A DNA stretch of 64,000 nucleotides from Harriotta raleighana (taxonomy: Eukaryota). Positions within the stretch are counted from its first letter, which is position 1. Every line of letters begins with the position of its first letter. Shown piece after piece: positions 841 through 30,439 of this stretch. The translations under genes and the position numbers were made by a program. A model generated the notes under the pieces. The model was not told the DNA's origin. It searched no databases and was given only the letters and a program-made list of their open reading frames with translations. The stretch is taken from contig JBNZDD010013719.1 in NCBI GenBank assembly GCA_050575255.1, positions 3,463,572 to 3,527,571 on the forward strand, written 5' to 3'.

Positions 841-951
841 CTGCTGCTCAGCGCCAACCAGCTCATGCTCTACGGCCTCGTGCTTGCGGAGCTGAGCCTG
901 TACTCCACGCAGGTCCTTGGCTATATCATCAGGAATGCTGGCTTGTTTCTC
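841..951 (-). CDS. SPTBN5: SPTBN5 coding exon 32 (last seen in window)
   Basis: [37 protein letters not shown]|gtaaga. Confidence 0.88.
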
Positions 952-3900: not shown

Positions 3901-6900
3901 CATCAGCAAGCATTCTCCCCGGCAGCCCAGCCTCCAGCCCCATCCCCCTGACCACCCTGAATCCATCTACCTTCACAGCCCCTCCACCTCAACCACCCCA
4001 ACAGCCAACCCCACCTGCCCAATCCACCTCCCCAGTTGGGTTACCCTCTGTTTGTGCAGTAGGCTTCGAGCGGTGTCCAGGGAGCGGCCATAGTTACTGG
4101 AGGTGGCCGCCGCCATGCGTTCCGACACCCAGGTCATCTCCAGCTCAGTGACATGATAGAACTCGTACAGAGTCACTGCAGCCTCCAGCAGCCTTCGCCG
4201 TTGCTTCAGGGGAAGCTGCAGGGACTGGAACCTAGTGAGAGGAACAGAGACAGCGACTGACAGTCACATGAGATCATCCAGCAAATACACTGCACTGCGC
4301 GAGAGATCGAAGGGTGGAGGGAGGGAGGGAAAGTGGGAGGGAAGGAGGAAAGGTAAAAGAGAATGAGAGAGCGAAGGAGGTAGCAAGGGAGGGAGCAAGA
4401 GGTAAGGTGTTAGGAGTGAGAGACGGAGCGAGGAGTGTGGGCCTCACCAATCCAGGTGATTCTGAGTCTGCTGCAGGATGCTCTGGGAGTTGAAGTGGTT
4501 TGTGGCGATGGAGCGTGCCCGGTTCATAATCCCGTTCATCTTGTCAGCCAGAAAGCCCATCTCAGCCTCTAGCCGCGTGTGCTCCTTCAGCAGAGTGCGG
4601 CTGGACCGCAGGTCTGAGCCCACCATCCGCTCATGCAACATCGCTTCGATCCGCTTCAGCTTCACTCTCAAGTCCTGGCAACACCACAACCATAGTTAGA
4701 TTTCAGACACCCGCAGCGCGACCAGCATCACCCACACAGCAACTGGCATCACGCACACAGTGACTGGTATTAGACATACACAGCGACTAGTGTCTCACTC
4801 TCTCACACACACACTGACCAGCATCAGACAACCACACAGTGACTGGCTTCACATACATACACACACACACACAGACTTGCGTCAGACATGTGCACAGCGA
4901 CCAGCGACACAGCGACGCACAGTGACCCGCTTCACACACGCACGCGCACACATATACACAGAGCGACAGGCATCACACACGCAATGACCAATGTCAAATA
5001 CCCTCACAGGCCACTCACCTGTAACAGCTCCATCAGTTGCTCCTGTTGCCCAGCTTGCCGGAGTTTGTCTCCTCTATCCGCCATCTTACTGTTCAGCTCA
5101 CTCCACCTCCTGATCAGCTCCTCCAGATGAGATTCCACTTGCTTTTTGGCGTAATGGTTTTCCCGAATGAGTTCCTGTCCAGCCTAGAGACAACCATGGA
5201 AAGAATGAGCCCGACCCCAGAACAACCCTGCACATAAATCTGCTTTATCCCTGTCCCCTTTCCCTCCTCTCTGCAGCCCTCTCTGCCCCTGGCCTGCCCT
5301 TTCTGGGGTAATGTTTCCAAGGTACTAATTCGCTTCCCGATTACCACAGTCCTCGCCAGACTGTCTCAGAGCGGATCAATTTCAAGATCCTCAAGCTTGT
5401 TTTCAAATCCTTCCACTTCTCTGCACCCCCACTACCTCTCTGATCTCCTCTTTCCTCACAACAGTACCCGTTGGCTTCGCTCTATTGGGTCTGGTCTCCT
5501 TTTTATCCCCCAAATCCTCCGTTCCACTGGGTGATTGTCGACCAGGTCACACTGGATGCAGCAATTTTCATGTCAGGACTTGTCAAGTGCTTCACAGGAT
5601 TCAGTATAAACTCTCTGTGTCACTCACCATCCGCAAACCCTCCACCTGCACCTGGTTGGCTAACATCTCTTTTTCGACAGCCTCATGACGCTTGAGTTTT
5701 TGCAGGATGTTGTTCGGGTCCCGGTAAGATTCGTCGGAAGCAATCTCATACTTTTCATTGATCCACATCTGGAGCTCGGCGGCATCTCGGTTAAACTCCT
5801 GGAGCAAGAAAAACAGATCAGGAAGGGGAACAGGAAATAGGAAATAGATGGAGAATGAGGGAGAGAGAAGAGAGAATTCCAGTTGCTCAGTCAGTAGAGC
5901 ACTCGCCTCATGAGTTTGATTCCTGAGGTAGGGCGAAATATTGGGAAAGATTCCTTAATCCACGGCGAGCAGTAAATAGGAACCCAGTTGTTGGTCAGTA
6001 GTCAGATCGCTTTTCCGGAGGTAATAATTCCTTTAAAAAATTCACTCAATCCACTGTTTGTGGTTCACTGCTGTGGCTATCAGCTGTTGCATTTCACTCA
6101 CAAAATATTTAAATTCAGTACATTCTGTGAAGTGCTTTGAGATGTCTCACAGATGTGATAACGAGCTAAATCAAATGCAAGGATTATCATTGTTAAAGGA
6201 GAGTGTGGAGAAGATTACACCCACACTTATAGGGAGACTGAAAGAGAAGAGAGGGTTAGTGAGAGAGAGACATTCAGAGGAGAGCACCGTGAGTGACCCA
6301 ACTCCATGGGGAATCCCAGGAGGCAGCAAGAATGGGGCCGAGAGGAAGAGGTTGAGCTTGTTAAAGCCAGGGATTGGAGACTGGGAGCTGTGTGCTGGAG
6401 ACTGTGAGCTGGAGACTGTGGGTTGTGCTGGGGGCTGGGCACTATACCTGGAATTTATATGATGCAGAGAGGAAATTGCGTCGCTCTTTACAACTACGCT
6501 TCATCTCACTCTGTCGCTCCTGGATTATGTTCACCCGCTTCTGGATCCTGGAGTCAAGAGAGCACAAATTACACATTGAATCCAGTCACTGACCCACTTA
6601 TTGTGACATCTGCCCTGTCACTGTCACACCTGCCCTGATACACTCACTGTCACATCTACTTTATCACTGTCATAGCTAACTTGACACACTCACTGTCACA
6701 CCTGCCCTGACACAATCACTGACACATCCACTTTGTCACAGTCACTGTCACAGTCACTGTCACACCCACCCTGTCACACACTGTCACACCTGCACCGACA
6801 CACTCACTGTCACACCTGCCCTAACCCAGTTAACGGACACGTACGTGTCACTGCCATAGTTTCCGCTCTGGATGGTTTTTCTCGCCATGTTCTGAAGCTC

Positions 6901-9900
6901 CTGTATGCGCTGGTCTGTCAATCTCAGCATTTTCTCAAACTCCTCGTGTCTCTTCAGCAAGCTGCTTACAGTGCCCACTGTGTCCTGAAATACAGCAGAG
7001 ATCCTACGGCTCAGACATGGTCACCAGAAACTCATGCTCTCAGTCGCTTGCACTGGAAACACACTGACCAGTGTCAGCCTGGCCAAATTGGTTGCGCTCT
7101 CACCTCTGAGTCAACAAGTTGTGGGTTCAAGCCTCAAATTCAACCCACTGTGACATTGAGGTCACAGCCTAGGTTGACACTCCAGTGCAGTGATAGGGGA
7201 GCGTTGTAATGTCAAGAGCTGTTGACCTCTGACTGTTCATATGGTCAACAATCCACCACACTCACTGGGCCTTCAATTCATGGCTGTTTGTAAAACATTG
7301 CTGCATACCAATTGAATGCCAAATTCTCTCACAAAACATGCAGTCATAACATACTACCCACACACGGAGATTAACTCTTACCCCAAGGTCACTGATCCTC
7401 AGGAAGGCATCATGTCCAGATAGTGTGGCCTCGATACGGTCGGCCTCACGGTTAAACTGTTGCAGCTGCAGACCCTCTTCCAGTTTCCGGTTGCGTTGCC
7501 TCCACGCTCCCGCCAGCTCCTCCTGAGCCTCACGAAGCCTCACCAGCATCTGAGCCGTCTCACCCCCTAAACTGGCCCGGGCCACGGCCTCACACCTTCC
7601 AAGCTCCTCCATCTCACGGAACCTAAGACAGAGCAAAATCTTTAGCACCTCGGTGATGACTGACCTCTGAGCTCCCTGCAGACGCACGGGGTGCAGCCCA
7701 GCATCCTGCGCTCGCGACTCGCAACTTCGGTAGCGGCAGTGGTTACAGTTTCGGTTCCGATCGTGATAGTGGTTACGGTAGCGGCGGCGGCACCTAACCC
7801 TCCTGTGCCGCCCAATGCCATGGAAGATGGGTAGGGTGGGGCTGTGCAATCTTGGGGGGAAGTGGGGTGTAGCGATGAGCTTGTGTGGGGGTGAGCTCAG
7901 GGGAGGTAGGTGGTGAGAGAATCTTGGGGAAGAAATGGAGGAATCTGAGTATGGGGGGGAAGCTGGGGGAGAGCTTGAGGGTGGAGCTGGGGTTGATCTT
8001 AGGGTGATCGGGGTGGGGACCTTGGGGAGGGGCACATAGGGAGTCTTACATGGGGTCTTACTTGGATTTTTGTGCATTAATCTCTGTCAAGATGTGGCGA
8101 TGTTCTTTCAGCAGCATGTTGGCGGAGGTGACATCGAGACCGGTCTCCGAGCTCTGTAACCGGGCCATGATGGTGGACGCCCACACTAGCAGCTCACGGC
8201 TCTCCTGCAGGAACAGTTGCTGCTTGTCTGAGTCTAATAGCAGCCGCTTTCTCTGCTTCACCTGCTTCTTCAACCTCCACAGCAGCTGCTCCATCTCACT
8301 GACCTTCGCCATGATCACCTCGCTTTCCGCCGGGTTTGTCTGCTTGATGCTGAAGCCAGAAACACACAGCATTAACTTTAGCCCTGTGCACTACAACGTT
8401 ACATTCGTAAAGTGCGTTTCACATCCGAAGATATGCCAAGGGACTGAANTTGACACTCCAGTGCAGTGATAGGGGAGCGTTGTAATGTCAAGAGCTGTTG
8501 ACCTCTGACTGTTCATATGGTCAACAATCCACCACACTCACTGGGCCTTCAATTCATGGCTGTTTGTAAAACATTGCTGCATACCAATTGAATGCCAAAT
8601 TCTCTCACAAAACATGCAGTCATAACATACTACCCACACACGGAGATTAACTCTTACCCCAAGGTCACTGATCCTCAGGAAGGCATCATGTCCAGATAGT
8701 GTGGCCTCGATACGGTCGGCCTCACGGTTAAACTGTTGCAGCTGCAGACCCTCTTCCAGTTTCCGGTTGCGTTGCCTCCACGCTCCCGCCAGCTCCTCCT
8801 GAGCCTCACGAAGCCTCACCAGCATCTGAGCCGTCTCACCCCCTAAACTGGCCCGGGCCACGGCCTCACACCTTCCAAGCTCCTCCATCTCACGGAACCT
8901 AAGACAGAGCAAAATCTTTAGCACCTCGGTGATGACTGACCTCTGAGCTCCCTGCAGACGCACGGGGTGCAGCCCAGCATCCTGCGCTCGCGACTCGCAA
9001 CTTCGGTAGCGGCAGTGGTTACAGTTTCGGTTCCGATCGTGATAGTGGTTACGGTAGCGGCGGCGGCACCTAACCCTCCTGTGCCGCCCAATGCCATGGA
9101 AGATGGGTAGGGTGGGGCTGTGCAATCTTGGGGGGAAGTGGGGTGTAGCGATGAGCTTGTGTGGGGGTGAGCTCAGGGGAGGTAGGTGGTGAGAGAATCT
9201 TGGGGAAGAAATGGAGGAATCTGAGTATGGGGGGGAAGCTGGGGGAGAGCTTGAGGGTGGAGCTGGGGTTGATCTTAGGGTGATCGGGGTGGGGACCTTG
9301 GGGAGGGGCACATAGGGAGTCTTACATGGGGTCTTACTTGGATTTTTGTGCATTAATCTCTGTCAAGATGTGGCGATGTTCTTTCAGCAGCATGTTGGCG
9401 GAGGTGACATCGAGACCGGTCTCCGAGCTCTGTAACCGGGCCATGATGGTGGACGCCCACACTAGCAGCTCACGGCTCTCCTGCAGGAACAGTTGCTGCT
9501 TGTCTGAGTCTAATAGCAGCCGCTTTCTCTGCTTCACCTGCTTCTTCAACCTCCACAGCAGCTGCTCCATCTCACTGACCTTCGCCATGATCACCTCGCT
9601 TTCCGCCGGGTTTGTCTGCTTGATGCTGAAGCCAGAAACACACAGCATTAACTTTAGCCCTGTGCACTACAACGTTACATTCGTAAAGTGCGTTTCACAT
9701 CCGAAGATATGCCAAGGGACTGAACAGTCAGGGGTTAGGACCCGAGCGGGTAGGGTAGGAGGGTGGCTGAAGACACTTTCAAAGAGGAGGGTCTTGAAGC
9801 ATGCAAGGGAGGGAGCATTGTGAAGGGAATGTCGGGAGGAGTTCCAGAGGGTGGGGCAGATAGGCTGAAACTCTGACCGCCAATGGTGAGGTAGGTTAGG

Positions 9901-12900
9901 GTGGGGACATGGAGCAAGCTGCATCCTGCTGAGCAGAAGGAACAGACAGAGTGATAAGGGGTTAGCAAAGAGGTATGGGGGTGGGCAAGACTATGGAACA
10001 TCTTGAAGGTGAAGAAGAGGATTTTAAACTTAATGCTCTGAGGCATGGGGAGCCAGTGGAACTGGGCGAGGATGGCTGTGATGGGGTCACAGAGCCTGAT
10101 GCAGGAGAAGATATGAACTGCAAAGTTCTGGATGATCTGCAGCTTGTGGAGGGAAGAGTTGCGAAGGGTGACAAGCAGGGAATTGGCATAGTTCAGTCAG
10201 GTAAGCAGGGTGTGTCCCATACATACATCCGGTGATGGGTTTCCAAGTGTGTCAGACTGATGTGGCTGATCACAGTAATGGGTTTTGGTGTGTGTAGGAA
10301 ACACGGCTGATCACTGTGATGGCTTTCCATATGTCAGATATCCAACTGATCAGTGTGATGGACTTTCATGCGTTGCAAACCCAGGACTAAGAATAACAAT
10401 ACGTACGATTTGGCCACTTTCTTGAGGTATTCAATCCTGGCCTCCAGGGTGTGGATGTCTCGCTCTGCCCCAGCTGTTATCTTGAAATCCCGATCGAACT
10501 CCTTGGAGAACAGGGTAATTTGATCCTCGAGCAATGTAGTGGTTTCCTGACAGCTGTAGAGGAAGGTCTTCATATCTGCTGTCCCAATCAGCTCTCTCCC
10601 CTTCTCCTCCTTCAGCGCCAGCATCACCTCCCACCTGTAAGCACGCAGCAACTGAGTACCCGCCCTTCCCGGTAGCGCAGAATAAAATGACAATAATCAT
10701 GGCATTCGATATTCTTATCATGTCTTTGAAACATCTCGAACACTCCACAAAACGTATTGTAAAATGGATCGACTGTATTTTGTGGATGAAATGTGGCAGG
10801 CAATTGTGTACAATAGTGTCCCATAAACAGTTATAAATTGAGTGCGCAAATATTTTTTGAGGATTATGCCCAGAAAGTGATTGGCCAATTGATGAACATT
10901 TGAGTTAGAGTAGTGCCTTACTGCTTGGTAAATACAACAAACAAGATTAGATTTATAGATCGCCTTTCACATGGGGAGGATGTTATTGGGGGATTTCCAT
11001 GTCGGTGCTTGGGGGATGAGTGGAGCGCTGTGTGTGAGTGCTGTGGGGGATAGCACTATGGGGGGTAGGTGTGGGTGGGGTCATGATCATTGTCAGGGGA
11101 AGCGCTGTGAGAAGTTGAACTGTTTGGGTGTGAGAGTGCTATGGGAGGGGTGATTGCAGTGGGTGGATGTGAATTTTGTAGGCATGGGGAGCACTATAGT
11201 GGGGTGTGCGTATCCTATGTGCGGTTGGGGTGATTGGGCACTGTAGAGTGTGAGTGCTGTAGGGGATGAGCTGTGTGAGGTGTTAAGTGCTATTTATATA
11301 TATGATGATGTGCAGGTGAGCCTTGTGTATGTGTGTGTTTGGAGGGATGTTCCGTGTGGGGGTATTGGGGGGTGGGGAGGGGAGCACTGTAGTAGGTGGT
11401 TCCTACGGAGAGATGTTCCCTGTGGGGGCACTGTTAGGGGTGTTCCTGGTGGGGTGTCGGAATGAGGGTGAGCGCTGTAGGGGTGAGCGCGTAGTGGGGG
11501 TGTTCTCTGTGAGGGTGTTCACTATGGGGGGGGGTGAGCATTGGGGGATGTGCAGCTGTGATAGTACTGTTGATGAATGTCTCGTTGTTTCTCTCGGATC
11601 TCCTTCTCTTTGCTGTGTCCACTTCTGATCAGCTCCTCCACCTGTTGGTTGATCTCCTCCAGTCTACCCTTCCCCGCAGCCAGTTCCACCAGGAAGTTCT
11701 AAAACACAACAAACTTTAGTGCAGCTCCAAGATACCATACAAGCCCAAAGATAAACTCAGCCGCTCGAACTCTAATCTCCGAAATGAGAGGTTGCTGGTT
11801 CAATCCCAATATTGGGGACCTTGAGCTCACAGTCTAGACCACTGTACGGTCTCTGGGTTCTGGTGAGACCCTTGTTTCACAGTGACCAGAATTGTCTACA
11901 ATTTTCAAGGCCTGACTAATATATTGTGCAGCCTGAGTATGATGTCTGGGGATTTTAACTCAACTGATTCAGCAATATATCTCAGCATCTTGTTTCCTTG
12001 CCTTGCCCCTCTCCCCCCAGCTCAGCCTTATTCTTTGCCACTGTCTTGGACACTAATTTACATGAGACGCTACACACTGTTTTAACATTGTGGGTGTTGA
12101 GTCAATTGACATAAGAAGCAGCTTGATATTGTGATGGAGGACAAGTGGTCATTAAAAAATAATCCTTACATTTGCTATATCCCCATTATATCGGGTGGAT
12201 GTCCTAAAGCACAATGCGGGAGTAAGTGCGAAAGTGAGGGTGAGAGAGTGTGAGGGAGGCCACACTGCTACGTAAACTTACCTCATATTTTCTCTGCATG
12301 ATCTCCACATTGTCTGATTTAGCCTCAAAAGTTTTGAAAACATTCTCTTTGTCTCTCATCCATGACTGGAAATCATCGCACGTATGATACAGTCTATATA
12401 GGCGCACCATCTCCTCTAGATTGAGGCGTCTGGCCTAGAGCATAGCAGTGGGAGAGTGGGGGCACAAAGAGAAATAAATGACAATCAAATTGATAATAAA
12501 CTGGGCTGCATTTTATCAATGACAATATCAATGTGGAACTGAGGATGTCTCAAAACGTTTGTTGAAATCATTGAACAAAGAGAGAGGATGTGTGCAACTA
12601 ATTCACAAAGAGAGACAAGGAGGTGGAAATAGAGAGGTGGCGAGAGAGGGAGGGAGAGGAGGGCAGGGGTAGGAGAGAGGAGTGGCACAGAGAGAGGCGG
12701 AGGCAAGTGGGAGGGACAAGTGGGGAGGGAGGCGGGGAGCAAGGAGGAAGGTGGGGAGTGGGGGTGGAACTGGACAGCATGGGAGGGAGATGTTGAGCGG
12801 GAGTGAGGAGGGGAGCTTGGAGATGAATGGGAGTCACCAGATGGGAATCGGGGAAGGGAGAGGAGGAGGGAGAAGGGAGCGAGGAGGAGGAAGAGGGGAG

Positions 12901-15900
12901 CACAGAGGAAAGTAGGGAGTGGGTGAGAGAGGTGGACAGCAAGGGAGGGAGGTGCGAAGTGGGGAAGGAGTTGAGAGTGGGGGAGGGAGATGGTCAGCAG
13001 GGGAGGGAGGTGGACAGCGGGGGAGAAAGGTGGTGAGGGAGATGGTGCTCTATGCGGGGGGCTAACCTCTGCAAGTTGGCATAATTTCTCATACTCGCTC
13101 TCCAAACCACTCTGTGTTCTCTCGATGGTGCCAGGGATGAAGTGAAGGTCTGAGAGCTGCAATTCATCAGTCACCCGCCGGTTGGCACGAGTCCTCCGCC
13201 CAGTCCTGCGTTCCTCCTGCCAACACCAAGCAAAAAACCATCAGGGTCCAGATCATCACCACCGCCATAGAGCACATGACCCCCGTCCCCCAGCACACTT
13301 AATCGAGTTCCTGTATGCAATATATTCCCGTCCCACTCCAGCCCCTGCGCCGCCCCAGCCCCATCCCATCCAGCCCCACCCCAGCCCTTCCCCATGTCTT
13401 GCTCCACCCTGTGTGGTGTCAGTGCTGGTGCTGATGGTGGTGCTGGTAGCCTTGCCTGGGCTGGGATCTCGGTGAAATAAGTGGTGGGGACACTGATGAT
13501 CCTGCCATAATGGGTCCGCAGCTCCCACGTCTCTGCGTTGGTTTTACTGCTGACATCCAACTCATCGTCTTTGTTAATGAGGAACACTGCGCCTGGGGCA
13601 AACAGAGGGTAACGGTCAGGGTGCTCCCCACACTGAGATATGAGATCATGGGCACAGGATCACAGGATTGTAGTGACACAGGAACACAGCAGGAGATGTG
13701 GCACCTCCTCTTAATTGCCGTTCCCATTGGACAAGATGGGGAACAAATAGCGACAGCTCAGTGTGGCGGTGGTGGTGATTGAGTTTACACCACATCTCAT
13801 CCACCAGATGTAACTCCCTTACACTTCCCCTCACTCATTACAGCTGATTGACAGCTCAGAACTGCTTGTGAATGGCTAGGGTCCACCATCAATCAATCAC
13901 AATTTGATTCTTCCCACCCACGCTCCGGGAGCTACCTGTGAGTGGAGCTGCTCGAGATACAGAAGGCATGAGGTGAATAAACGCAATTTGTCTGGATGAA
14001 CCGGCACAATTCAAATAGGTGAAAATGAATCAGGGACGGGCGTTTATCCCAGGATCTGGCTTAAGCGGCTTCCAGTGTGTGTAAGAATAATCCTTGCATT
14101 TGATATAGGGCTTTTCACATCTTCTGGACATCTCAAAGCGTTTGATAGAATATACTGTAAAGTGAATTAACTGCATATATGTGGGTGAAATGTGGCAGCC
14201 AATTGCACACAGCAGTGTCCCACAAACAGTTGTGGATTGAAATAACAAAGTTATTATGGTGTTTTATTTTGGGATTGTTATTAGGCGTGTGGAGTAAGGA
14301 AACTTGCCCAAGATTTCAGCCTGCCTGGAATTGAACCCAGGTCTCTCACTTGTAACCACTAAGCTACAGGACTCCATGATATCATGATATGATGGGATCA
14401 TAGCTCCCAGATAAGGTTAAATCACGTTTGCCATGTGGGTTGGGCTACTAACCTCTGTAGACCTCATGGAATCTGACACGTGGGAAGTGCTGTTGTGCTG
14501 TGACACTCAGGGAGCGTGTGTGAGGCACGGTGGTCTCTTCTTCATCATCAGACCACAAAGTGTCCACTGCCTTCGCATCCTGGGCTTCAACCTGAGAGCA
14601 CAGGAGCTTTACACTGGAGCCACACAATGCACACACTCACTTTACAATATTAACACCATTAATAAAACATCCTTCACGCCTGATGGCATCTCAGAGCGCT
14701 TAACACTCACTCAACACTGTACACACTCACTGTACAAACCAACTGCACACTGTACACTCACTGTATACATTTCCTGCACTGTATGCACTCACTGTACAAA
14801 CTCACTGCACACAATCACTCACACTGTACGTATTCACTGCTTACTACTCACTATATGTAGGAGCACACACACTCCAGGTGGCATGTGGACACACTTACTG
14901 TGATGGGAGCTTGCAGTGCTGCTGTCCTCGCCTGCTCAGCGATTCGCCGCACCTCACTGTGATAGGCACTGATCTCCTGTTGCAGCCGCAGGTGCCTCTG
15001 GAGCAGGGCGCTAGCACTCAACTCGTCCTTCCCGTGGTCATCACTGCCGAGGAGCGGACGCACCTCCCTTAGCCACGACTCAACCTCATTGACATCTGTG
15101 AAATACTGAGAGCGGCATCACAACATCACAGTGAGCTTGTTACAGTATGACATCACAGAGTGCTCACAATACTCTCTCACTGGAGGAAGACATCCCGCTT
15201 TCGTAACTGTGGACAGTATTAGGCACAGGTTGGTAAGAGCCAAGGCTTGGCTTATCCTGAATGTGTCTTGTAGGTAACTGCAGAAGTCTAACCAGCTAAA
15301 ACTGCATAGGTTTTGCCTTCGAGGGCACTTTCTTTCACTGCTTTCCCACTGCTTGTTCAGCTAGCCCTCCACCCGTTAGGGCATTTGAAATTAACAGGAG
15401 CTGAGACAACGCAACTCCACTTGATGACCTGTCATGGGCAGGGACCAGGAATACTGAGAAACCACCAGGTTCAGGAGCCATATTAGATTCTGTCAGAGGG
15501 GATTGACAATTTAGAGCCAGCTGAGCTCCAAGGAGAGACACTGTGAGCGCTCTGCTCACTGCTCTCTTACCTGTTTGATCAGCAGAGCAGCCTGGAGGTG
15601 GGTTCGGTGGCCAGCCACTGCCTCCAGCAGTCGCTGCCAGTTTCTGCGCAGTCGGCTCACCCACTCGCTGAGCTCGCGCTCACTGACCACACTGCCCCGG
15701 CTCATGGCTTCGCCCGCCTGCACCACTGAGTAACACAGAGACTGGTGCGAGTTACACTCCACTTCCAGGACCTGGAGAGAGAGGATCAGCAGAGTGTGAG
15801 AGATAGACCGAGTGAGAGGGAGAAAGTGAAAATAATAGAGACAGAGTGAGAAATAGACAGAGTTAAAGAGATACAGAGTGAGAGAAAGACAGAATGAGAG

Positions 15901-18900
15901 ACAGCATTTGAGAAAGACGGTGAAAGTCAAGAGGGGGAAGGGTGATAAAGACCGAGAGACAGAGTGAGTGAGAGTGAGCGAGAATGTCAGAAGATTGTTT
16001 TTTTGTTGTAAATCGTTGTTGGTGGGAATGTGCTGGGCTTAAAATTACAGTGACAGGAATCGCATTAGACTCTGATTGCCAGTAAAGTGCACTGTGTTGT
16101 GGCCAAATTGACTGGCTGGGTGTGGTGATGGGAGTGGTAGTGGCTGAGGCTGGGTGTGGGATGCCCCATACCTTGTGTTTCTGGATGGATGCAGTGATCT
16201 GGTTGACGTCTCGGCCCAGTGTAACAGAATGCACCAGCTGCCATCGCTCCAATATCCATGCATTCTCCTCCTCACAGTCCCTGATAATCCCAAACACCAC
16301 CTGCTGCTGCTCCAGCCGCTTCTGTCTGTGTGTGGATAAAACATAGAGACTACAGCCAACCAGCCATGGGCAGAAGCTTCCAAAACTGGGGGAGGAGCAC
16401 CAGCCCATGCCTGCCATCTGGGGGCTCAAAATAGATAGGCGGACTCATAGGGAGCCATTGGTGACAGGGCCTCACCTGGCTGTGCTGAGTCTCTGCAGAG
16501 TGTGGTGAAGGTTGTTGAGTTTCTGCAACCCATCCCACACGCCGGGAGCCCGGCCCATCTCCTCGGCCCTCTGGTTAATGTGTTGCAGCACCTCACCCTG
16601 TACCACCACCTGCGCTGCCATCATGTTGTGTTTCTGTAAAAGGTCTGCCAGCTTCAACATGTTCTTTCCAGAATCTTCAGAGCTGAGCAGCACCTGTCAG
16701 GGCAGTGAAAAGAGGTCAGACAGACAGCAGGTTACACTGAGGGCTTTTTATCCAGACACTGAGTTGATTTTGTGCCCGACACTGGCTGCCCAGTCTGACA
16801 CCACAGTTATATTGGCACTGTCCTTTCTCTCCTGTACGCTCACTGTGCTCACCAACCTTGTTACCTCTCTCTCCCTCCATCAAAAAAACTCTTCCACCAC
16901 TAATAAACTCCAAACTCGTCTGAAACTCTGTTACCCAAATCATCACCCTTCCACCAACTCTGCACCCCCTCACCCCTGACCTTGCTAGAATCTCCTGGCT
17001 CCCAGCGACTTCAAGCACCTCACCTCATCTGTAAATCCCTCCACACCCTGGCACTTCCCAATCTCTCCAATCACTTCCTACCCCTCTCCTTCTCTCACCT
17101 CACTCACCCTCCCTCTCCTCCCTCCATCAGTGGTTGAACTTTCAGCTCCTTCATTTCTAATCTCTGGAACAAACAAACTCACTCCCTCCTCCAGCTTCTC
17201 TATCAGTCTTTAAATCCCATCCATTTGACCACACCTAGGGTCACTTCCCACTCTTCCCTCTCCACCAAGGGGTCTTTGAAACATCCCCCTGATTATGGAA
17301 AGGGTTGCATAGGATACATTTGTAGAATATTTGTTCCTCTTCTGAGGAAGAATGAATGCCATGCTCCATCGTGGTCTGGGATTTTATTTAAAAAGAGAGG
17401 GCTAGGCCCAAAGCCTCATTTGAGGCTGTGGCTGTACCTGCAGGGCCTCCATCTCTTTGTGGGCACTGTCGATGTCTCGCAGCAGCGCCAAGGTGGTTTC
17501 CTGATTTCTGAGGGATTCCTTCTGGCTGGACAACTGAACCAACAGATCTCTCCAGCGACGGTCAATCTCCTGGTGCCTGTGGACAACCACAACTTGTAAC
17601 AGAAACATCCGTCATATCAACCTGGAGCCTTCCTCCATGTCTCATCCCACATTTACACTGAACTGTGTCATCCAATGGGAATGCTGGTTGTTCCTGGTAC
17701 CTGCCATCCACATAGTGAGGGCTCAAACCCACACTTGTCAGATGTCAAATGACCGACTTGTGACTATCCTCCTTGGAGGGGAGATAGGTAGAGTCTCCTT
17801 GGAGCTGAATTGGCTCCAAGATCACATGCTTGGCAATGGATATAGCAGTCTCAGTATTCCAGCATTCCTGAGCTAGGGAGATCCACAGTATTCAAGGATA
17901 CTGCTGATTTCAGCACAGTTCATCAGCAGGACTTGGAAGGGCATAACATTCACTGAGGGCTGGGAATCCTCCGACTCGGCTCCTGTTAACCCTGCAGGGC
18001 AATATCCTAGCTGGACTAGCAGCAGGAAAACTTGCCGCACAGAGCTTTCAATAGCGTGCCATATGGTTTTAGCTGTTTAGACGCCAGCAGTTACCCCAAC
18101 ACACACTCTGGGGATCCCAAGTCTGGGCTCTTGCCAACCTGTGCTTAATACTTGCTGGAATTAGATAAGCAGGATGTGACCCTCCAAAGAGGGAGAGAGT
18201 ACGTTTTCCATTCCAGCAATCTATCTCTGGGATTTCCACATGTCAATGGACTCCATGGAATTCTCAGTTTGGTTTGGATACTCTTGAACATGATGATGGG
18301 TTCCTGCATTTATCAGGCACACAACTGACTCAAAAAATCAACAGTGCTCTGGAGTACGGGCTGATTGTTGGCTCAGGAACTGGACTAGAGACCATTACAG
18401 AGAGTGGGCCTTACACCAACATTCCATCACCTAGTATCAGCTGAGCTGGTTGAGCTCCTCAGTGCTCAGTTAGTGTGACCATACAGCAGGCAGACTCATG
18501 CAGCAAGGTGGACACTCACTTTCTCATGATCTTGGCTTTACTGTGGTAATTCTCTGTGTTGATGACCTGAGCCATTTCGGCCAGTGCCCTGAACCTCTGT
18601 TCCCGGGCCAGCAGATCAGTCGAGATGGCCTCTAGTCTCTTGGTGGCTGCCTGGGAATGCTCACAACTCTCCACCTCAGAGCCTTGTTTGGCCACCACGG
18701 AGGTCATCTCATTCAGGTACGTCTCCCTCAGGACAGCTTTCTTCCGAAATTTCTGCACCAGCTGCTCCAGCCTCTGGAGCCTCAGCATTTCCTGCAGGAG
18801 GGCCTTCTCCCGCTGGTGCTCAGCCTTCTCCAGGAGCTCCCAGTGCCGCTCGATGTCACTCAGTAGATGTCCCTCAGGTGGCATATACTGCCTCATATTA

Positions 18901-21900
18901 TTGGCTCGCAACTTGGTCCTGATGTTGAAGAGGTGAGCTTCGATGAGGCCTCGTTCCTGGTACTTGGGCGGCTTCTCGACCGTCCGGAAATGCTTGAAAT
19001 CCGACATCAGGCTTTGCATGCCATTGAGTGAGCTGGGGAATGAACGGGCATCCAGCTCATTCACCTTCTGAGTGATCCACTTCAACAGATTGGACACAAG
19101 TGCCTCGTACTCTCTCTTCAGCTGCTCGATCTCTTGCAGGAGGCCCAGTATCTGTGTACAAAGCAGCGAAGTATAGGGTGCAACAAAAGAACAACAACAA
19201 AATTACATTTGTAAAGCACCTTTCACATTCGGATAACGTCCCAAGGAGCTCAACAGTTGGGGATCAGGATCTGAGATTTGGGGGCAAGATTGGGATGAGT
19301 GAGGACAGAAAGATAGGATGATGGCTGAAGGCACAGTCGAAGAGGAGGATCTTGAGACATGCTTTGAAGAAGGCAAGCGGGGGAGCAAGGTCAAGGGTTT
19401 ATAGGATGGAGTTCCAAAGGTTGGGGGCAGAGAGACTGAAAGTCCAGCTGTAGATAGTAGGGCAGGTTGGGCCACACAACCACTCCCCTACACAGCCTCT
19501 TACACAACAACTCACTCATGCAGCCAAAATCACACAACCAGTAACACTCCAAAGAGATTAACACACACTAAGTCTTTTACAGTCAAACAGAAAGTCAGGG
19601 GGTCAGACACTCAGAAAGTCAAACAGTCAGATAGTTAGACAATCAGAGGCCCTATATCAAATGTAGGAATTATTATTGTTGTTGAGGCCAGTGATAGACT
19701 GGCTTCCAGAAAGGGCTCATGATTGTTAGCTAGAATAGTGATGTTGATTCAGTATAAATCTTTTGTGCATTTAAAGTAGTGCAGTAATAGTGTTCAGGAA
19801 ATTTCTGAAGTAGAGGGGAGTTTTTCTCTCTTGGTGTCCTGAACAACAATCCCCCAGATAAAACTGGTCACTCACTCCATGGCTGCTTGTGGGACATTGC
19901 TCTGCCCAACTAGCTGCCATGTTTTGCCCACAAAATACAAAGTCAATCCACTTTACAATATATTCTGGAAACCACAGCTCAATTCTGTGATAAGGCAATA
20001 ATGCAAGGATTGTTGTTATTATTCATATTATACAGCCAGTCCAACCCTGATTGAAGCAGAGAATGAAACTCAGTCATGACTGTGAGGTGCTTCAGCTAAG
20101 TCACTGAAACTTAGCTGAAAGACAGGGATAATTGTGGTGTACAGGCCCTTACCTTGGCAATCCTCTTCTGCTCGGTCTGGTCCTTCCGCAGCCTGGAGAA
20201 GTAATGGTAATAGAGCGAGACGTAGGTCATGATGGACTTCTCATCAGGATGGGGCATGGCCACGTCCTCAGGATCCAGTAGATGGAAGATACCAAGCTTC
20301 TCATCGGCCACACAGAAGGCATTGTGCAGATTATAGATGGGTTTGTCTTCTGTCAGCTTATTGTAGTCAATCAGGTCAGGCCTTGCAATGAAACATTCAG
20401 GTCACAGGAGCAGGAGTTGGCCAGTCACTGGGCTGAGCGCATAGGTCATTGGGAAGAGCACATGGGTCACTGGGCAGAGCACACTTGGAGGGATTGACTA
20501 GTCACTGGGAGGGATCAATCAGTCACTGGAAGTTTGGAATCCACTCGTCTTCTGTTAACACAAAGCCCTAATAGATGGGGTGGTTCTAGCTGGAAAACAG
20601 TGGGAACCACAAAACACCTTTGGCATTTGTTAAGCTGTCACACAGTGATCTCAGTGGAAAACCATGCTGACATAGACTGTCACAAGGGAGGGTTGGTTAA
20701 ACAAGTCTTCATTTGCATCATAAATAATTGCAAATCCCTCCCTCAGAGAGGAGTCCTCCAAGACTCTCCATTCTGTTGTGGACGCATTAAATAAAAAGAC
20801 AAAGGGATGCTCTGCCATTGTTAAGTGACAAGTGTTACCTGTGAGCATGGATGATTGCGTTGAAGGCCAGTCCATCACGCCAGCTGTGGGTGAAATCTCT
20901 AACGTTTACATTGTCGTAGCCAGTTGTCTTTCGCTGGCACCAGATCAACAGGGCCTCCTTCGCAGATCGCAGGGCACTGCTGGCTCCAAACTCCTCCTGC
21001 GCAACACACAAAGGGTTAGTCAGTCAGGCAGACACACAAATCACAGCCATATAGTCACTCAGCTAGACAATGATGATTAAGGAACCATTCCTCCACACAG
21101 AATGGTGAGAGTGTCGATCGCTCTTGCACCAAAGGTCAAAGAAGTAGAATGCAGCAGGTAATGTAAAATAAGTAAATAGATATCTGTGAAGTTAGGGGGT
21201 TAAGGGATGTGGGGAAAAGGCAGGGAAATTAGATTAAAAGATCTGCCATGATCTAGACTGGCAGATCAGGCTAGACAGACACCAATCTATGGCCCTGTGA
21301 GGCAAGAGGCAGCATGCTCACTCTTCCTATACAAAGGTCCATGTGATCAGACTGCATGCAGAGCTACACGTATATAGGTTGCACATTTCCCTGTATACAT
21401 GGTTGCATGAGCCACCATCTCTAACCAATCAACCAGGACAAGCCTGAAAGCCACCCACCTCATCCAGGGTGATGCAGGAGATCTGGAAGCGGAGGATGAT
21501 GATCCAGATCAGGCCCAGAATCAGAGTGCGGTCCCCATCCACCACATTCTCTGGGCCGATCAGCTCCACTTTGATCTGAAAGACACACAAGTACAAGTTC
21601 AAATGTCAACCCATGGATAGTAGTAATAATAATGTAAAAGCAACCCTCACATTTGAGATCATGCCCAATCATATTGCTGCGATGCCTATTCCTGCTTCAC
21701 AGCATATACTGTAAAGTGTAGTGACTGCATGTTTTAAGAGTGAACACAGAAGCCAATATGCACTGCAATTTTTGGGGGCAGTCAGCCAGAGGTCTGACAT
21801 GTCCGACAAACAAGCATGCAGTGAATGATTGATTTTATCTGGGGGAATTGTTCACTAGGACATCTGACAATTGTTCACTAGGACTCCTCTTTTCTGTGGT

Positions 21901-23831
21901 ATCTTTAACATGCACCCAAATAAACAGACAGTCGGAAGTCTCAGCTGATGGATGGAACCACTATGAAGGCATCACTCCCCCAGCACAGCACCGGAGTGTC
22001 AACCTGCACTGAAAGCTCTAAGTCCCGATGTGGAGTTGAAATCTTCTCTGTCAGAGGCAAAAGTGCTTGGGACTGAGCAAGGTTGAAAGTGAATGATGAT
22101 GAAGGGAAGTCTCACTGGATTTACCTTAGTTCTCAGGAAACAAATGGCTTTGCTGTTGTTTTCCAGATAGTGAACCCGCATCCTACCATTGGTTGGTCTG
22201 GGAAGCTTTTCTCCTGAAATCAGCTCCAGCAAGCGGATCAGAGCGATCCCATCCTTCAACTCTGTGTAGATATCAGTGAGAAAAATACCGGCCTGGGGAG
22301 GAGAGAACAGTTCTATGACTCAGTGACATATGGAAACCCATATGGAAACCCATATGGAAACCATCACGGTACTGAAAAGTTCCATGTCTGCCACTACATA
22401 TGAGAATTCCTATGTTCAGAATGAAATGGACTCTCTAATGCCAGAGGGACACAACCAGATTATCTAGTTCCAGAAAGTATAAGAGCCAAGTCTTGGGGTA
22501 ATTGCTGGAGTCGAACCAACTAAAACCACATAGCTTGCCATTGAGTACTGTCTGGCAAGCTTTCCTACTGCTTGTTCAGATAAGACCACCCTACCCATTA
22601 GGCCTTTGGATTCGCTGGGTTAACAGAAGCTAAGTGGGAAGTCCCTGGTGACTGGTCTGCCCTTTCATGTCTTGAAAATGAGCCAGGCTGGCTGGAATGT
22701 TGCAGATTGCTCTGGCCTAGGGACTGAACTAGAGACCATCACAGAGGGTCATTGCATTGCCAAGCAAGGTACCTTGGAGTCAACTCAGCTACAGTGAGAC
22801 ACACTTGCTCGCCTCCATCCTTCCAGTAAGAAACTATTATGTATAAATTGGACTTCAGTCTCAGGGTTATATGCTGACAATTGATTATGAATGCAGGAAA
22901 ACATGAGCATTCCACAGCACCTGTTATCTGAATGCTGCCTATAAAGCCTCCAAGACTTTCCCTTTCATAGCAGTTTCACAGCCTATCAGTGACTTGGGTA
23001 CTCTCATTCTCACCATAAAATCACATTCCTTGGTGGAGCATGAGAGATTAAATTGCGTCTGACAGAATGTCAATTTATACAGTCTCATAGTCCAGTTACA
23101 GCCTGGAACAGCAATGTTAGAAACTAGATTCCTTCTTTTAACATTTCACCTCTCTAACAGTGAATTAAGCCTGCACACTTCCTTTCGAAGCCCCACCTGA
23201 GCTGAATTAGAAATGGTCAATTGTAACAGGGCAATGCCATGACTAGTCTATCCTGGTGAGTTGATGGCCACAATCTCTGGTGAAGGTGTTACTGGGGGCA
23301 CAGAGCTTTACCACCACCCCCAATTCCAACTGCCCTATTCCTCAGAGACCCCACCACCCAGACATCTGATTCCCTAGTTAACCATCTTTTATCCCAGATA
23401 CCTCCCCAGGCACCCGATCTCCAAAAGACTCCCACCACCTAATCATCCCCATTCCCCAAACACCCGAGCTACCCCACCCCCAAAGATCCCCTGCAGATCC
23501 TAGACATATCCTACCCCTCAGATACCGCATCCCAATACTAAACATACTTCATCCCTGATACGCCCATTAAGTTACCACCCAGTCACCTGCAACTCTCAGA
23601 CCCTTCGACTCCCACCATCCCAAAGACCTCTGCAGCCACCGCAACCCCCACCACTTCCTATCTAAACATCCACCTTCCAGCCCTCAGACAACCTGCCACT
23701 GATTGCCAATTCCATACCTGCTCCTTGGTGAAGAGCTGGTTAATCCAGTTGGTAAAGGTTTTTTTTTGCACACTCATGCGCTGCTCCTGTAGCTCCCGGA
23801 TTCGCCCCTTCTCAAACTCCTCGTCCATCAT
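841..23831 (-). CDS. SPTBN5: Spectrin beta chain non-erythrocytic 5 (beta-V/beta-heavy), 5' part: 32 coding exons, about 1927 codons, continues past the left window edge
   Basis: Starts [31 protein letters not shown], followed by CH1/CH2 motifs ([75 protein letters not shown]) and then serial spectrin repeats. Exons have AG/GT boundaries with matching phases (one probable GC donor). The insertion in repeat 5 fits the beta-V/beta-H class. Confidence 0.92.
1198..1312 (-). CDS. SPTBN5: SPTBN5 coding exon 31
   Basis: [38 protein letters not shown]. Confidence 0.86.
2187..2332 (-). CDS. SPTBN5: SPTBN5 coding exon 30
   Basis: [26 protein letters not shown]...KQKALR. Confidence 0.88.
2759..2891 (-). 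CDS. SPTBN5: SPTBN5 coding exon 29
   Basis: [22 protein letters not shown]...[12 protein letters not shown]. Confidence 0.88.
3145..3308 (-). CDS. SPTBN5: SPTBN5 coding exon 28
   Basis: [20 protein letters not shown]...[11 protein letters not shown]. Confidence 0.85.
3444..3560 (-). CDS. SPTBN5: SPTBN5 coding exon 27
   Basis: [39 protein letters not shown]. Confidence 0.88.
3678..3878 (-). CDS. SPTBN5: SPTBN5 coding exon 26
   Basis: [20 protein letters not shown]...LQHTVRFHQ. Confidence 0.88.
4045..4231 (-). CDS. SPTBN5: SPTBN5 coding exon 25
   Basis: [39 protein letters not shown]...LLHKQR. Confidence 0.88.
4448..4674 (-). CDS. SPTBN5: SPTBN5 coding exon 24
   Basis: [10 protein letters not shown]...[20 protein letters not shown]...HLDW. 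Confidence 0.88.
5019..5183 (-). CDS. SPTBN5: SPTBN5 coding exon 23
   Basis: [13 protein letters not shown]...[19 protein letters not shown]. Confidence 0.88.
5628..5798 (-). CDS. SPTBN5: SPTBN5 coding exon 22
   Basis: [45 protein letters not shown]. Confidence 0.9.
5875..6192 (+). mobile_element. tRNA-derived SINE (further partial copies at about 226-400, 1925-2132, 10680-10870, 26318-26495, 34400-34528, 44521-44595, 47085-47205, 61910-62037)
   Basis: gctcagtcagtagagcactcgc head, core and tail. Confidence 0.8.
6448..6547 (-). CDS. SPTBN5: SPTBN5 coding exon 21
   Basis: [33 protein letters not shown]. Confidence 0.85.
6590..6825 (+). repeat. Degenerate cactgtcaca minisatellite (intronic)
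   Basis: Read directly. Confidence 0.8.
6845..6984 (-). CDS. SPTBN5: SPTBN5 coding exon 20
   Basis: [20 protein letters not shown]...GNYGSDT. Confidence 0.88.
8658..8898 (-). CDS. SPTBN5: SPTBN5 coding exon 19 (identical second copy at 7382-7622)
   Basis: FREMEELGR...[30 protein letters not shown]. Confidence 0.86.
9338..9625 (-). CDS. SPTBN5: SPTBN5 coding exon 18 (identical second copy at 8062-8349)
   Basis: [12 protein letters not shown]...[12 protein letters not shown]...EINAQKSK. Confidence 0.86.
9665..10200 (-). mobile_element. L2 LINE 3' fragment
   Basis: [17 protein letters not shown]; [10 protein letters not shown]; L2-type tail. Confidence 0.85.
10407..10634 (-). CDS. SPTBN5: SPTBN5 coding exon 17
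   Basis: [30 protein letters not shown]...YLKKVAKS. Confidence 0.86.
11568..11698 (-). CDS. SPTBN5: SPTBN5 coding exon 16
   Basis: [43 protein letters not shown]. Confidence 0.86.
12282..12434 (-). CDS. SPTBN5: SPTBN5 coding exon 15
   Basis: [30 protein letters not shown]...QRKYE. Confidence 0.88.
12600..13040 (+). repeat. GA-rich low-complexity intron tract (also GT-rich 10960-11560, C-rich 23310-23655, CA repeat 58770-58806)
   Basis: Base composition read directly. Confidence 0.75.
13067..13216 (-). CDS. SPTBN5: SPTBN5 coding exon 14
   Basis: [50 protein letters not shown]. Confidence 0.8.
13456..13592 (-). CDS. SPTBN5: SPTBN5 coding exon 13 (SH3-like core; probable GC donor)
   Basis: [46 protein letters not shown]|gcaagg; 3' boundary uncertain. 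Confidence 0.7.
14085..14375 (-). mobile_element. tRNA-derived SINE (same family)
   Basis: Head ggagtcctgtagcttagtggtt, core and tail on the - strand. Confidence 0.85.
14453..14591 (-). CDS. SPTBN5: SPTBN5 coding exon 12 (linker plus start of SH3-like insert)
   Basis: cag|[19 protein letters not shown]...[13 protein letters not shown]|gttagt; the phase-1 end matches the next exon. Confidence 0.72.
14899..15105 (-). CDS. SPTBN5: SPTBN5 coding exon 11
   Basis: [41 protein letters not shown]...APIT. Confidence 0.88.
15571..15771 (-). CDS. SPTBN5: SPTBN5 coding exon 10
   Basis: [13 protein letters not shown]...LQAALLIKQ. Confidence 0.88.
16172..16325 (-). CDS. SPTBN5: SPTBN5 coding exon 9
   Basis: QKRLEQ...[16 protein letters not shown]...[16 protein letters not shown]. 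Confidence 0.88.
16476..16693 (-). CDS. SPTBN5: SPTBN5 coding exon 8
   Basis: [22 protein letters not shown]...LSTAR. Confidence 0.88.
17438..17576 (-). CDS. SPTBN5: SPTBN5 coding exon 7
   Basis: [15 protein letters not shown]...EMEALQ. Confidence 0.88.
17800..18456. mobile_element. Unclassified ~650-bp dispersed repeat with imperfect terminal inverted repeats (other copies about 15180-15530, 22400-22792, 24330-24830)
   Basis: Shared core ttttagctgtttagac...agttacccca...ctcttgccaacctgtgc; the left end is reverse-complementary to the right ends of this and other copies. Confidence 0.6.
18520..19151 (-). CDS. SPTBN5: SPTBN5 coding exon 6 (spectrin repeats 1-2)
   Basis: [12 protein letters not shown]...[31 protein letters not shown]; 632 nt. 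Confidence 0.92.
20153..20381 (-). CDS. SPTBN5: SPTBN5 coding exon 5 (CH2)
   Basis: PDLIDYNKL...[31 protein letters not shown]...RIAK. Confidence 0.92.
20839..20996 (-). CDS. SPTBN5: SPTBN5 coding exon 4 (CH2)
   Basis: [53 protein letters not shown]. Confidence 0.92.
21085..21330 (+). mobile_element. Old CR1 3' end in an SPTBN5 intron
   Basis: cacacagaatggtgagagtg...gggatgtggggaaaaggcaggg...ctcttcctat. Confidence 0.55.
21459..21575 (-). CDS. SPTBN5: SPTBN5 coding exon 3 (CH1)
   Basis: [39 protein letters not shown]. Confidence 0.92.
22125..22292 (-). CDS. SPTBN5: SPTBN5 coding exon 2 (CH1)
   Basis: [30 protein letters not shown]...FLRTK; AG/GT boundaries. Confidence 0.92.
22327..22362 (+). 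repeat. Perfect 12-mer tandem repeat (catatggaaacc)x3
   Basis: Read directly. Confidence 0.9.
23718..23831 (-). CDS. SPTBN5: SPTBN5 coding exon 1
   Basis: cag|atcATGATG...GAGCAG|gtatgg; MMDEEFEKG...FTKEQ. Confidence 0.88.
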
Positions 23832-28525: not shown

Positions 28526-30436
28526 ATGGAGAGATATCACAGTTTCTCAGAAAAAGATTATAAATATGAGACTTCATTTTCCAAATAATGTACATTTACT
28601 ATCCCATGCAAGGGGTCATTGGAGTTCCAGGTAAGTAAGTGCCACAGTCACTGCTATGAGGGACAGTTGCATAACCTAATAGCTGTGATATCAGCACGTG
28701 TTACACGGGTATTTATTCAGCCAATCTTTTCAGTGAGAAATTGTACACATTTTACATAAATTGCTTTCTTCACAGCCTTGGGAAGTCCTCCTGGTGTGAA
28801 AGGTGTTACACAAGTATAATTTTGTTGCATTATTGAAATGATAACTTTCTGCAAAACTCAAAACAAGCAAATTGGGGATTATTCTTGCTCGGTTGTACAT
28901 GGGGAGTATAAGCAATGAAATATGTGTTATTTAATGCGTCTGCTCCCCCATTTTGGAGTCCTGAAGCTCAGTGGTTAGAGCACTCATCTTACAAGCATGA
29001 GACCTGTGTTCGAATCCAGGCAGGTCAGGGCAAAACCTTGGGCAAGTTTCCTTACTCCAAACATCTAATAATAATTCCTCCAAAGAAAAACAATAACAGT
29101 TTGATCACTCAATCCACTACTATTTGTGGGCCACTGCTGTATGCAATTGGCTGCTGCAATTCACCCACTCAATTCACTTTATAATATACAGTATTCTGTG
29201 AAGCGCTTTGAGACATCTAGATACACGAAAAGCACTATATCAAATGAAAGGATTATTATTATTTTATATCATCAATGTATTTATTCATGTCGTTAAAATG
29301 TGACAGCTGGTCTGTAGAAAAATCTGATCTCCCACTTATTGGAAGCTAATCACTGATATAATGAATCATCAAAGAGAGTTAGGATTATTAATGTTAAAGT
29401 TTGAATTTCCAAAACATAGAATAAGTTGAATATATTTCCTCAGCTTGATCGACATTTTAGAATTACTGCACATTTCAGATGAACAAATCTTTTAAGAAAA
29501 GTTTGAAACTAGACAGCAGTGTATTAAAGGTTTCCCAGTGTGCTCTTGTCTCAGAGATGCAAGGAATTAATGTGCAACACCTCTTGTTGTGGAAGGAATC
29601 TAATCAAAATATTTAGAGTTTAGAAAAACAATGGTTTGGGGTAAAATTAGATACTGTATAGTGATGCTGTGAACTTGTTGCATATCATCAATCTCTGTTT
29701 CTCTCCTGTGATTTTGGAGTTGATACACTCTGATATCAATGATGGTGGACAATCTTTATTTGAGCGCAATCAAAGTTACATTGATGATTTCCACCCTATC
29801 ACAATTTGTTCTTTTCCACAGGAGAGAATGTGCAAGCCATTGCAGTCCAAGGGAATTTTAATGTCAACAAGAAAGAGAGACAGAGAGAGAGAGACACAAA
29901 CACGCACAGACTGAGACCTATTTAGTCCAGAGTCAGCTCGAGACTGTTATACCAGTGTCTATTTCTTGTTTCCGGTTAACTTGGTGGCGATCGTGATCCT
30001 GAGCCAGGGAAAGTGTGGTCTCTCCAGATGTATCTCTCACTACCTGGTAGCCATGGCAGCCAGTGACGTACTAGTCATTCTATTTGATCCCATTCTGACT
30101 CACATGAATTTCCTGTATTTTCCCAGTTGATTCCTGGACATTACCCCTGTGTGTGCACAGGTAACCTCCCTGCCGGTGGTAGCAACCTATACCTCTGCCT
30201 GGTTAACAGTGGTGGTTTTTACATTTGATTGCTATGAAGCCATCAGTTATCAAGGACTGAAGACAAGGTATTGCACTGAGAAGACATCATTGGTGGTTAT
30301 ATCAATAGTTTTTGAGGATCAGCTGTGTGAAAAACATTACCTAGTTCTTCCCTATGAAACTTGGTTTGTAATCAACAATGTGCCATGGTTTTGCAAAACA
30401 AAAGGAATCTTTTTTACATCATCATGGTGGAAGGCA
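28526..30436 (+). pseudogene. GPR139/GPR142-like rhodopsin-family GPCR pseudogene, copy 1 (exon 28526-28630; exon 29976-30436, truncated by L2)
   Basis: YYPMQGVIGVP|VNLVAIVILSQGKCGLSRCISHYLVAMAASDVLV...SAWLTVVVFTFDCYEAI; 2-nt frameshift in exon 1, acceptor AG changed to GG, TGA at about 30128. Confidence 0.85.
28955..29263 (+). mobile_element. tRNA-derived SINE with L2-like tail, full length
   Basis: A box (agctcagtgg), B box (gttcgaatcc), conserved core tgtgggccactgctgt...attggctgc, tail gaagcgctttgag...ggattattatt. Confidence 0.88.
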
Positions 30437-30439
30437 ACG

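Follow-up and report, generated by a model that had tools for sequence, protein, structure and literature searches.

The SH3 domain of beta-heavy spectrin is likely retained, without its binding tryptophan, in the beta-V spectrin of Harriotta raleighana and many other vertebrates

A stretch of 64,000 nucleotides of Harriotta raleighana DNA (assembly GCA_050575255.1, contig JBNZDD010013719.1, positions 3,463,572 to 3,527,571 of the forward strand), here called the window, was found to carry on its minus strand the 5' half of the gene for beta-V spectrin, SPTBN5. Two of its exons, coding exons 12 and 13, encode a segment that is, by profile comparison, an SH3 domain homologous to the one found at the same site in beta-heavy spectrins. 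The first coding exon lies at 23828, and the gene continues beyond the left edge of the window. The gene model comprises 32 exons with 1922 codons uninterrupted by a stop, one duplicated exon pair having been left out. Its product is 57-59% identical to the four annotated shark SPTBN5 proteins, 53% identical to that of lungfish, and 45% identical to that of platypus. The omitted pair belongs to a tandem duplicate of 1275 bp, with identical copies on either side of the window's single N (position 8449) and two spectrin exons within it; the likeliest cause is that contig ends overlapping each other were joined during assembly, rather than a genuine exon duplication.

The assignment to beta-V spectrin made in an earlier note on this DNA was borne out by shark identity, by collinear exons, and by placement in a FastTree phylogeny (46 sequences, 1788 columns, insert excluded). 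The vertebrate beta-V clade received a support of 1.0, and the window gene was sister to the four sharks and outside them, again with support of 1.0, in a tree that holds no ray or chimaera relatives and whose outgroups, P0020 and P0031, carry a conventional-beta label of our own. Exons 1-5 align to residues 1-262 of shark SPTBN5 (68-83% for Scyliorhinus), corresponding to the N-terminal tandem calponin-homology (CH) region; in the orthologues, Pfam places two CH domains within the N-terminal part matched by these exons. Exon matching in the adjoining 30 kb gave collinear matches to the 4124-residue shark beta-V up to residue 3646 and again at residues 3877-3905, the C-terminal PH region being represented by a single 29-residue match. 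This collinearity indicates that the gene is the heavy, 30-repeat form of spectrin. The orthologues have 29-31 Pfam spectrin repeat stretches (21 in the bichir model); the window gene was judged by exon collinearity.

The earlier note had also held that two extra exons interrupt a spectrin repeat while keeping the frame. Translation and splice sites confirmed the named peptide pieces in their places on the minus strand. Exon 12 is 139 nt long, with acceptor ctctcag and donor GTTAGT, and exon 13 is 137 nt long, with acceptor ccccag; together they form a frame-neutral unit of 276 nt running from phase 0 to phase 0, and the spliced frame of exons 11-15 is open with both exons included or both skipped. 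They contribute to an insert of 122 extra residues in the loop that joins helices B and C of repeat 5 (the B-C loop), a repeat number that is our own count and agrees with the literature. The acidic motif of exon 12 is present as well in sharks, lungfish, bowfin, and teleosts. The sequence of exon 13 has one match in the whole genome, and a second copy of the SH3 exon elsewhere was rejected on that ground.

Intron 13 most likely uses a GC donor, judging from its consensus match and from orthologue alignments. The site at 13456 matches 5 of 6 consensus positions and lies three residues past the TEI motif, where the homologue alignments break, and for these two reasons it was preferred over 13337. 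The frame-keeping GT alternatives at 13408, 13337, 13297, and 13276 match 0-1 of 6 positions. It would be the sole non-GT donor of the 32-exon model. An automatic model, in which all 31 introns are GT-AG, places the exon-12 acceptor at 14606 and the exon-13 donor at 13337 (1 of 6 consensus positions). Neither choice affects the SH3, and the exon-13 donor alters only the linker that follows it.

We infer the splicing of exons 12 and 13 from the sequence and from orthologue protein models. That exon 13 requires a GC donor, and that the frame survives skipping of both exons, would also fit genomic relics that are usually skipped or otherwise spliced here, leaving a protein without the domain. We regard this as very improbable: both exons are stop-free and full length and align without gaps over 58 profile positions, the GC site keeps nearly all of its consensus, and the segment is found in the annotated proteins of four sharks and many bony vertebrates, with all six further isoforms retaining it.

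The SH3 identity of the insert, likewise claimed in the earlier note, was upheld by profile comparison. Against a profile of 27 non-vertebrate beta-heavy SH3s, chosen by eye from the orthologue rows, the spliced window peptide scored 25.5 bits, ungapped over 58 positions (4-61). The best of 2000 shuffles reached 11.4 bits and the reversed peptide 2.3; none of the 2000 attained the window score, and a chance open reading frame was rejected for this reason. A vertebrate SH3 profile built from 16 sequences with the window excluded scored the same peptide at 36.7 bits. Comparison of the vertebrate with the non-vertebrate profile gave an HHalign probability of 99.4, which is biased upward by the fitting of the vertebrate alignment to the non-vertebrate profile. 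Coral, amphioxus, crinoid, molluscs, insects, and a choanoflagellate have an SH3 insert at this site too.

In Pfam, exon 13 alone matched SH3_10 with E 0.0012 and 19.4 bits, under the cut-off of 22.8. A lungfish fragment passes the SH3_10 cut-off at 23.8 bits. In whole-protein Pfam scans, 9 of 9 insert-bearing vertebrate proteins fell under the SH3 cut-offs and amphioxus passed; the precomputed Pfam lists showed no recognised SH3 family among the vertebrate orthologue matches listed (120 of 173 and 21 of 21). With exon 13 as the query, a homologue search covering proteins of up to 2000 residues returned four candidates and no match, and a search of Protein Data Bank sequences returned three matches, the best at E 0.18, to CED-2 and TNK1. 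The ESM Atlas gave, as leads only, a top score of 0.90 to a cluster without a name and 0.84-0.88 to SH3 clusters.

Structure prediction, a check proposed in the earlier note, was made for an orthologue and for exon 13 of the window, both AlphaFold2 models having been built from alignments that contain true SH3s. In the lungfish model of repeat 5, helices A and B are followed by a five-strand domain (predicted local distance difference test score, pLDDT, of 85-90) and then by helix C, with linkers below pLDDT 50 on either side of the domain; the domain, five strands and a helical turn, superimposes on solved SH3s with a root-mean-square deviation (rmsd) of 1.2-1.5 A over 55-60 residues. The model of window exon 13, which is without the first strand, is a three-strand meander and a turn with a mean pLDDT of 74.7. 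SH3 structures dominate its fold searches with weak scores (best Foldseek E 0.2).

These fold comparisons also bear on the idea of an atypical, plakin-like SH3 that, its ligand groove lost, lies against the repeat before it and would stiffen the rod until force releases it. In the accessible part of one study, the SH3s of plakins (plectin, desmoplakin, and VAB-10) likewise lie within a spectrin repeat, the fifth, lack the ligand residues, and contact SR4 (10.1101/681072). Desmoplakin was the top Foldseek match of the lungfish model, and plectin headed the VIA list for exon 13, sharing its Z of 4.7 with ordinary SH3s; within the alignment, SH3_10 occurred more often than any other SH3 family (13 of 15 members). 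However, the Foldseek plakin matches have an rmsd of 20-21 A and TM scores of 0.23-0.28, which points to shared parts and not to shared packing, and the beta-V domain, in a host of a different protein family, is predicted to hang on variable, disordered linkers of about 40 residues each where the plakin SH3 packs on SR4. We consider such packing improbable.

The ligand-binding surface of the domain is altered. The canonical pocket for PxxP peptides consists of the two Tyr of ALYDY, the first Trp of the WW pair, a Gly-aromatic-x-Pro motif, and an (Asn)-Tyr. At these sites the window has E, Y, T, I-S-x-P, and T-Y; the first Tyr, the Trp, the Gly, and the aromatic are gone and, judged by these residues, the domain does not fit the canonical PxxP-binding pocket. 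Invertebrate beta-heavy spectrins of the karst and SMA-1 type differ from the window in these same four residues, having the WW pair in 27 of 27 copies and mostly G-Y/F-V-P; they were compared through amphioxus, crinoid, mollusc, insect, and coral sequences.

The same change runs through the jawed vertebrates. The first Trp is present in all 27 non-vertebrate copies and in none of 27 jawed-vertebrate inserts (12 non-teleost, 10 teleost, 4 shark, and the window, two rows, one of them at least a shark row, having gaps at this site). In the 12 non-teleost jawed copies its place is taken by K (7), T (3), or M (2), and in the window by T. The Gly before the pocket Pro is retained in 24 of 27 non-vertebrate copies versus 1 of 12 non-teleost jawed copies, that of lungfish, which still has GYIP and NY. 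Because the Trp is universal outside the vertebrates and absent from every jawed insert, the altered pocket appears to be an old change common to jawed vertebrates and mostly not local decay. The earlier note was correct that the surface is altered, and its suggestion that the domain might be decaying here was not sustained: decay special to this lineage was rejected, as the Trp loss is common to all jawed copies aligned and the window copy is fuller than those of the four sharks.

Other residues persisted. The second Trp, the Pro, and the last Tyr are present in the window and in 12 of 12 non-teleost jawed copies, and the second Tyr of the first strand is Y or F in 11 of those 12. From bichir to wombat there is a common vertebrate pattern of RFxYRG, RGD/E, W, P, Y, and TE. 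These features would be expected if the Trp-less SH3 had been repurposed at the jawed-vertebrate stem for a partner other than PxxP, using the retained Tyr, Pro, and Tyr with a new RT-loop pattern, and was lost where the partner or role was lost. However, the replacement of the Trp was not fixed on one residue, and the teleosts (P0161, P0287, P0292-P0303), which have a full-length insert with RFxY and P-x-T-Y, retain the second Trp in 0 of 10 copies. The first strand was deleted in sharks, and at least four lineages manage without the domain. The identity of the SH3 exceeds that of the flanking helices in 142 of 351 non-vertebrate pairs versus 16 of 78 jawed pairs, the pairs not being independent, so that in 62 of 78 jawed pairs it falls below the flanks. 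We therefore regard repurposing for a non-PxxP partner as rather unlikely.

The distribution of the insert was examined in orthologues drawn from a HMMER search with exon 6 (150 of 1168 listed), word searches (120 of 173 and 21 of 21 listed), and three cluster look-ups. Anchor pairs scoring below 78 were discarded, and the 153 targets still include some rows that are mis-anchored or belong to conventional spectrins. Sampling was uneven, with no ray, other chimaera, crocodilian, snake, gar, zebrafish, or second placental in the protein set. On the non-vertebrate profile, lungfish scored 76 bits, salamanders 44-49 (3 of 3), caecilians 35-43 (3 of 3), bowfin 40, bichir 26-35, platypus 34, wombat 29, and sugar glider 18. 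Thirteen teleost models, with inserts of 144-157 residues, scored 8-18 bits.

The four sharks, Heptranchias, Heterodontus, Scyliorhinus, and Pristiophorus, are the closest relatives compared and share the acidic and basic linkers of the window. Their inserts span 107-124 residues and, unlike the full-length window copy, are without the first strand and some of the RT loop; none scores above 3.5 bits on the non-vertebrate profile. In these proteins (P0296, P0301, P0302, and P0304) the insert is kept with graded internal deletions of the SH3, of which the sawshark retains almost none.

Every bird (81 of 81), frog (16 of 16), and turtle (7 of 7) cluster had a short relic of 31-51 residues with zero SH3 signal, as did two lizards, all three isoforms from a single fox species, and one lamprey. 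A lizard model without the whole stretch (P0010) was mis-anchored and was excluded from the insert-length counts. The fox protein, orthologous by the tree and with an insert at the same site, differs in having a 47-residue relic without SH3. Among 74 further members, all 65 site-spanning bird, turtle, and frog models were short, 3 were fragments without the site, and 6 kept a long insert; these 6 of 6 are additional isoforms or models in salamanders, wrasses, and the horn shark. Relocation of the SH3 within the protein was rejected, whole-protein scans of bird, frog, turtle, lizard, fox, lamprey, and coelacanth models having given no positive score. Two beta-heavy models, P0033 and P0115 (invertebrate, Trichinella included), have a short insert of 57-61 residues without SH3. 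PF27015, assigned to many bird SPTBN5 models and the wombat among the matches listed, does not track the SH3.

Lineage-specific retention was rejected, since lungfish, amphibian, bony-fish, platypus, and marsupial models all have the insert. The single loss after the split from this lineage that the earlier note envisaged does not agree with an insert kept from lungfish to marsupials and gone from lamprey, frogs, sauropsids, and fox. Its statement that mammalian SPTBN5 lacks the domain holds for the one placental sampled and not for platypus and marsupials. Given absence from lamprey, frog, sauropsid, and fox models while others retain the insert, the accepted vertebrate tree likely requires that the domain was lost in full no fewer than four times independently, in lamprey, frogs, sauropsids, and placentals, and that it was eroded in sharks. 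A link between loss of the SH3 and the evolution of outer hair cells was dropped, frogs, birds, and lamprey being without the domain and marsupials having it.

The explanation towards which we lean, with modest confidence, is that exons 12 and 13 encode an inherited beta-heavy SH3, with a predicted fold set into the B-C loop of repeat 5, that is likely vestigial because it is without the Trp that SH3 domains use for proline-rich partners. The Trp would have been replaced once, before the jawed-vertebrate lineages split, with loss of proline-peptide binding at the jawed-vertebrate stem, and the remaining pocket would then have relaxed lineage by lineage, in keeping with the small share of jawed pairs in which the SH3 is more alike than its flanks. 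Selection would have been retained on fold-forming residues only, so that the insert, predicted to hang on two long flexible linkers, leaves the spectrin rod undisturbed. Because exons 12 and 13 make up a cassette in phase 0, the reading frame would survive loss of the entire domain, and such losses may have occurred independently in lamprey, frogs, sauropsids, and placentals, while sharks would have eroded the SH3 in place instead. Turtle relics scored a median of 29.5 bits on a profile of the post-SH3 linker, against 2.8 or less for shuffles, and -1.5 on that of the pre-SH3 linker, the outcome expected if exons 12 and 13 were removed.

In the accessible parts of two reports, C. elegans whose SMA-1 had an intact SH3 deleted were viable, of normal size, and fertile (PMC8699742), and alae were normal after deletion of the SMA-1 SH3 (PMC13395344). 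These worm results fit a dispensable domain. The functional importance of the vertebrate SH3 is most likely slight.

Several observations weigh against a vestigial domain lost by cassette removal. Full length, the second Trp, the Pro, and two Tyr were kept across cartilaginous fish, bony fish, lungfish, amphibians, and mammals, a long time for a useless part, and two of the retained residues face the ligand side in canonical SH3s. The exon-14 linker was poorly matched in the relics of frogs and lizards (medians of 3.0 and 4.5 bits), and birds, fox, and lamprey were at shuffle level; removal of exons 12 and 13 as the route of loss would thus be supported for turtles only. Two coelacanth models conflict, with inserts of 139 and 49 residues and no SH3 score. 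Absence was read from annotated protein models and not from genomes, so that exons could be present and skipped, and placentals are represented by one species and lamprey by one model. Foldseek with the exon-13 model, which spans that exon only, gave zero matches at E 0.001, and its VIA Z was at most 4.7.

A bolder reading of the retained residues is that jawed vertebrates gave the Trp-less SH3 a new job, with a non-proline partner or as a force-released clamp, and that it still works in cartilaginous fish, lungfish, salamanders, caecilians, platypus, and marsupials. It would have been overlooked by falling under search cut-offs and being deleted in the species studied, and the insert in human repeat 5 would be its scar. 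We hold this to be possible and on balance doubtful.

Elsewhere in the window, on the plus strand, a DSL (Delta/Serrate) match could be an exon or a broken copy of a Delta-like gene, and three 7-transmembrane receptor-like fragments, related to one another, resemble broken copies from a single receptor family. Fragments of long interspersed nuclear element (LINE) type retrotransposons, presumably CR1/L2, are also present.

Table 1. Positions of SPTBN5 exons and of other features in the window
Feature	Position	Strand	Basis
Beta-V spectrin (SPTBN5) gene, 5' half, coding exons 1-32	841..23828	minus	open model, shark identity, collinear exons, tree
Coding exon 11: repeat-5 helices A and B, with 7 residues of the insert	14899..15105	minus	207 nt, AG/GT, phase 0-0; 57% identity to shark beta-V
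Coding exon 12: acidic linker (SDDEEE); first SH3 strand and start of RT loop in 14489-14453	14453..14591	minus	translation, splice sites, profile alignment from position 4
Coding exon 13: remaining SH3, RT loop to last strand	13456..13592	minus	Pfam SH3_10 below cut-off, AlphaFold2 model, fold searches
Putative GC splice donor of intron 13, CAG/GCAAGG, non-canonical	13450..13455	minus	best among enumerated frame-keeping donors
Coding exon 14: basic linker after the SH3, and repeat-5 helix C	13067..13216	minus	150 nt, phase 0-0; aligns with shark RRSRSMRRG linker and helix C
Tandem duplicate with two spectrin exons	7174-8448 and 8450-9724		exact identity over 1275 bp
DSL match	63534-63872	plus	Pfam, E 1.5e-8
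Receptor-like fragments	30131-30535, 39172-39672, 43559-43915	plus	Pfam 7tm_1 below cut-off in two, no match in one
LINE-type fragment	34568-35517	plus	Pfam RVT_1, E 6e-11
LINE-type fragments, scattered	25763, 32693, 44810, 57627, 58837

The earlier note had allowed that the insert might prove widespread and already described in fish SPTBN5. It is widespread as sequence in annotated fish proteins, and no paper naming the SH3 was found. Human beta-V, as reportedly described by Stabach and Morrow in 2000, is without SH3 and has a 45-residue insert in repeat 5. Our literature search found no paper on an SH3 in vertebrate beta-V; the 2017 study of Cortese et al. (PNAS), which is said to have compared beta-V across vertebrates, lay with its supplement outside that search and could pre-empt part of the present finding. 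No SH3 in vertebrate beta-V is mentioned in the accessible parts of PMC3249148, PMC6546920, PMC13545430, 10.1101/388496, and PMC9537699; of these, the accessible part of a review of beta-V lists CH domains, 30 repeats, and PH and names no SH3 (PMC6546920). Database entries may already flag the domain, since the lungfish fragment alone passes SH3_10.

In the sequences compared, the ancestral beta-heavy SH3 survives, its binding Trp gone, in many vertebrates as far as the marsupials, and it was likely lost several times. This would correct the usual picture of the SH3 as a divider between invertebrate beta-heavy and vertebrate beta-V spectrin, as the domain appears to reach monotremes and marsupials; for a spectrin specialist we would expect the surprise to be moderate. 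On the simplest reading, the short insert in placental repeat 5 would be the leftover linker of the SH3. Because worms tolerate deletion of an intact SH3, the functional stakes are modest unless the Trp-less SH3 has a partner. Within one gene there would be a graded series, from intact pocket to lost pocket, eroded fold, and a cassette removed at least four times, which may serve as a test case for how a domain is lost after its binding residue goes.

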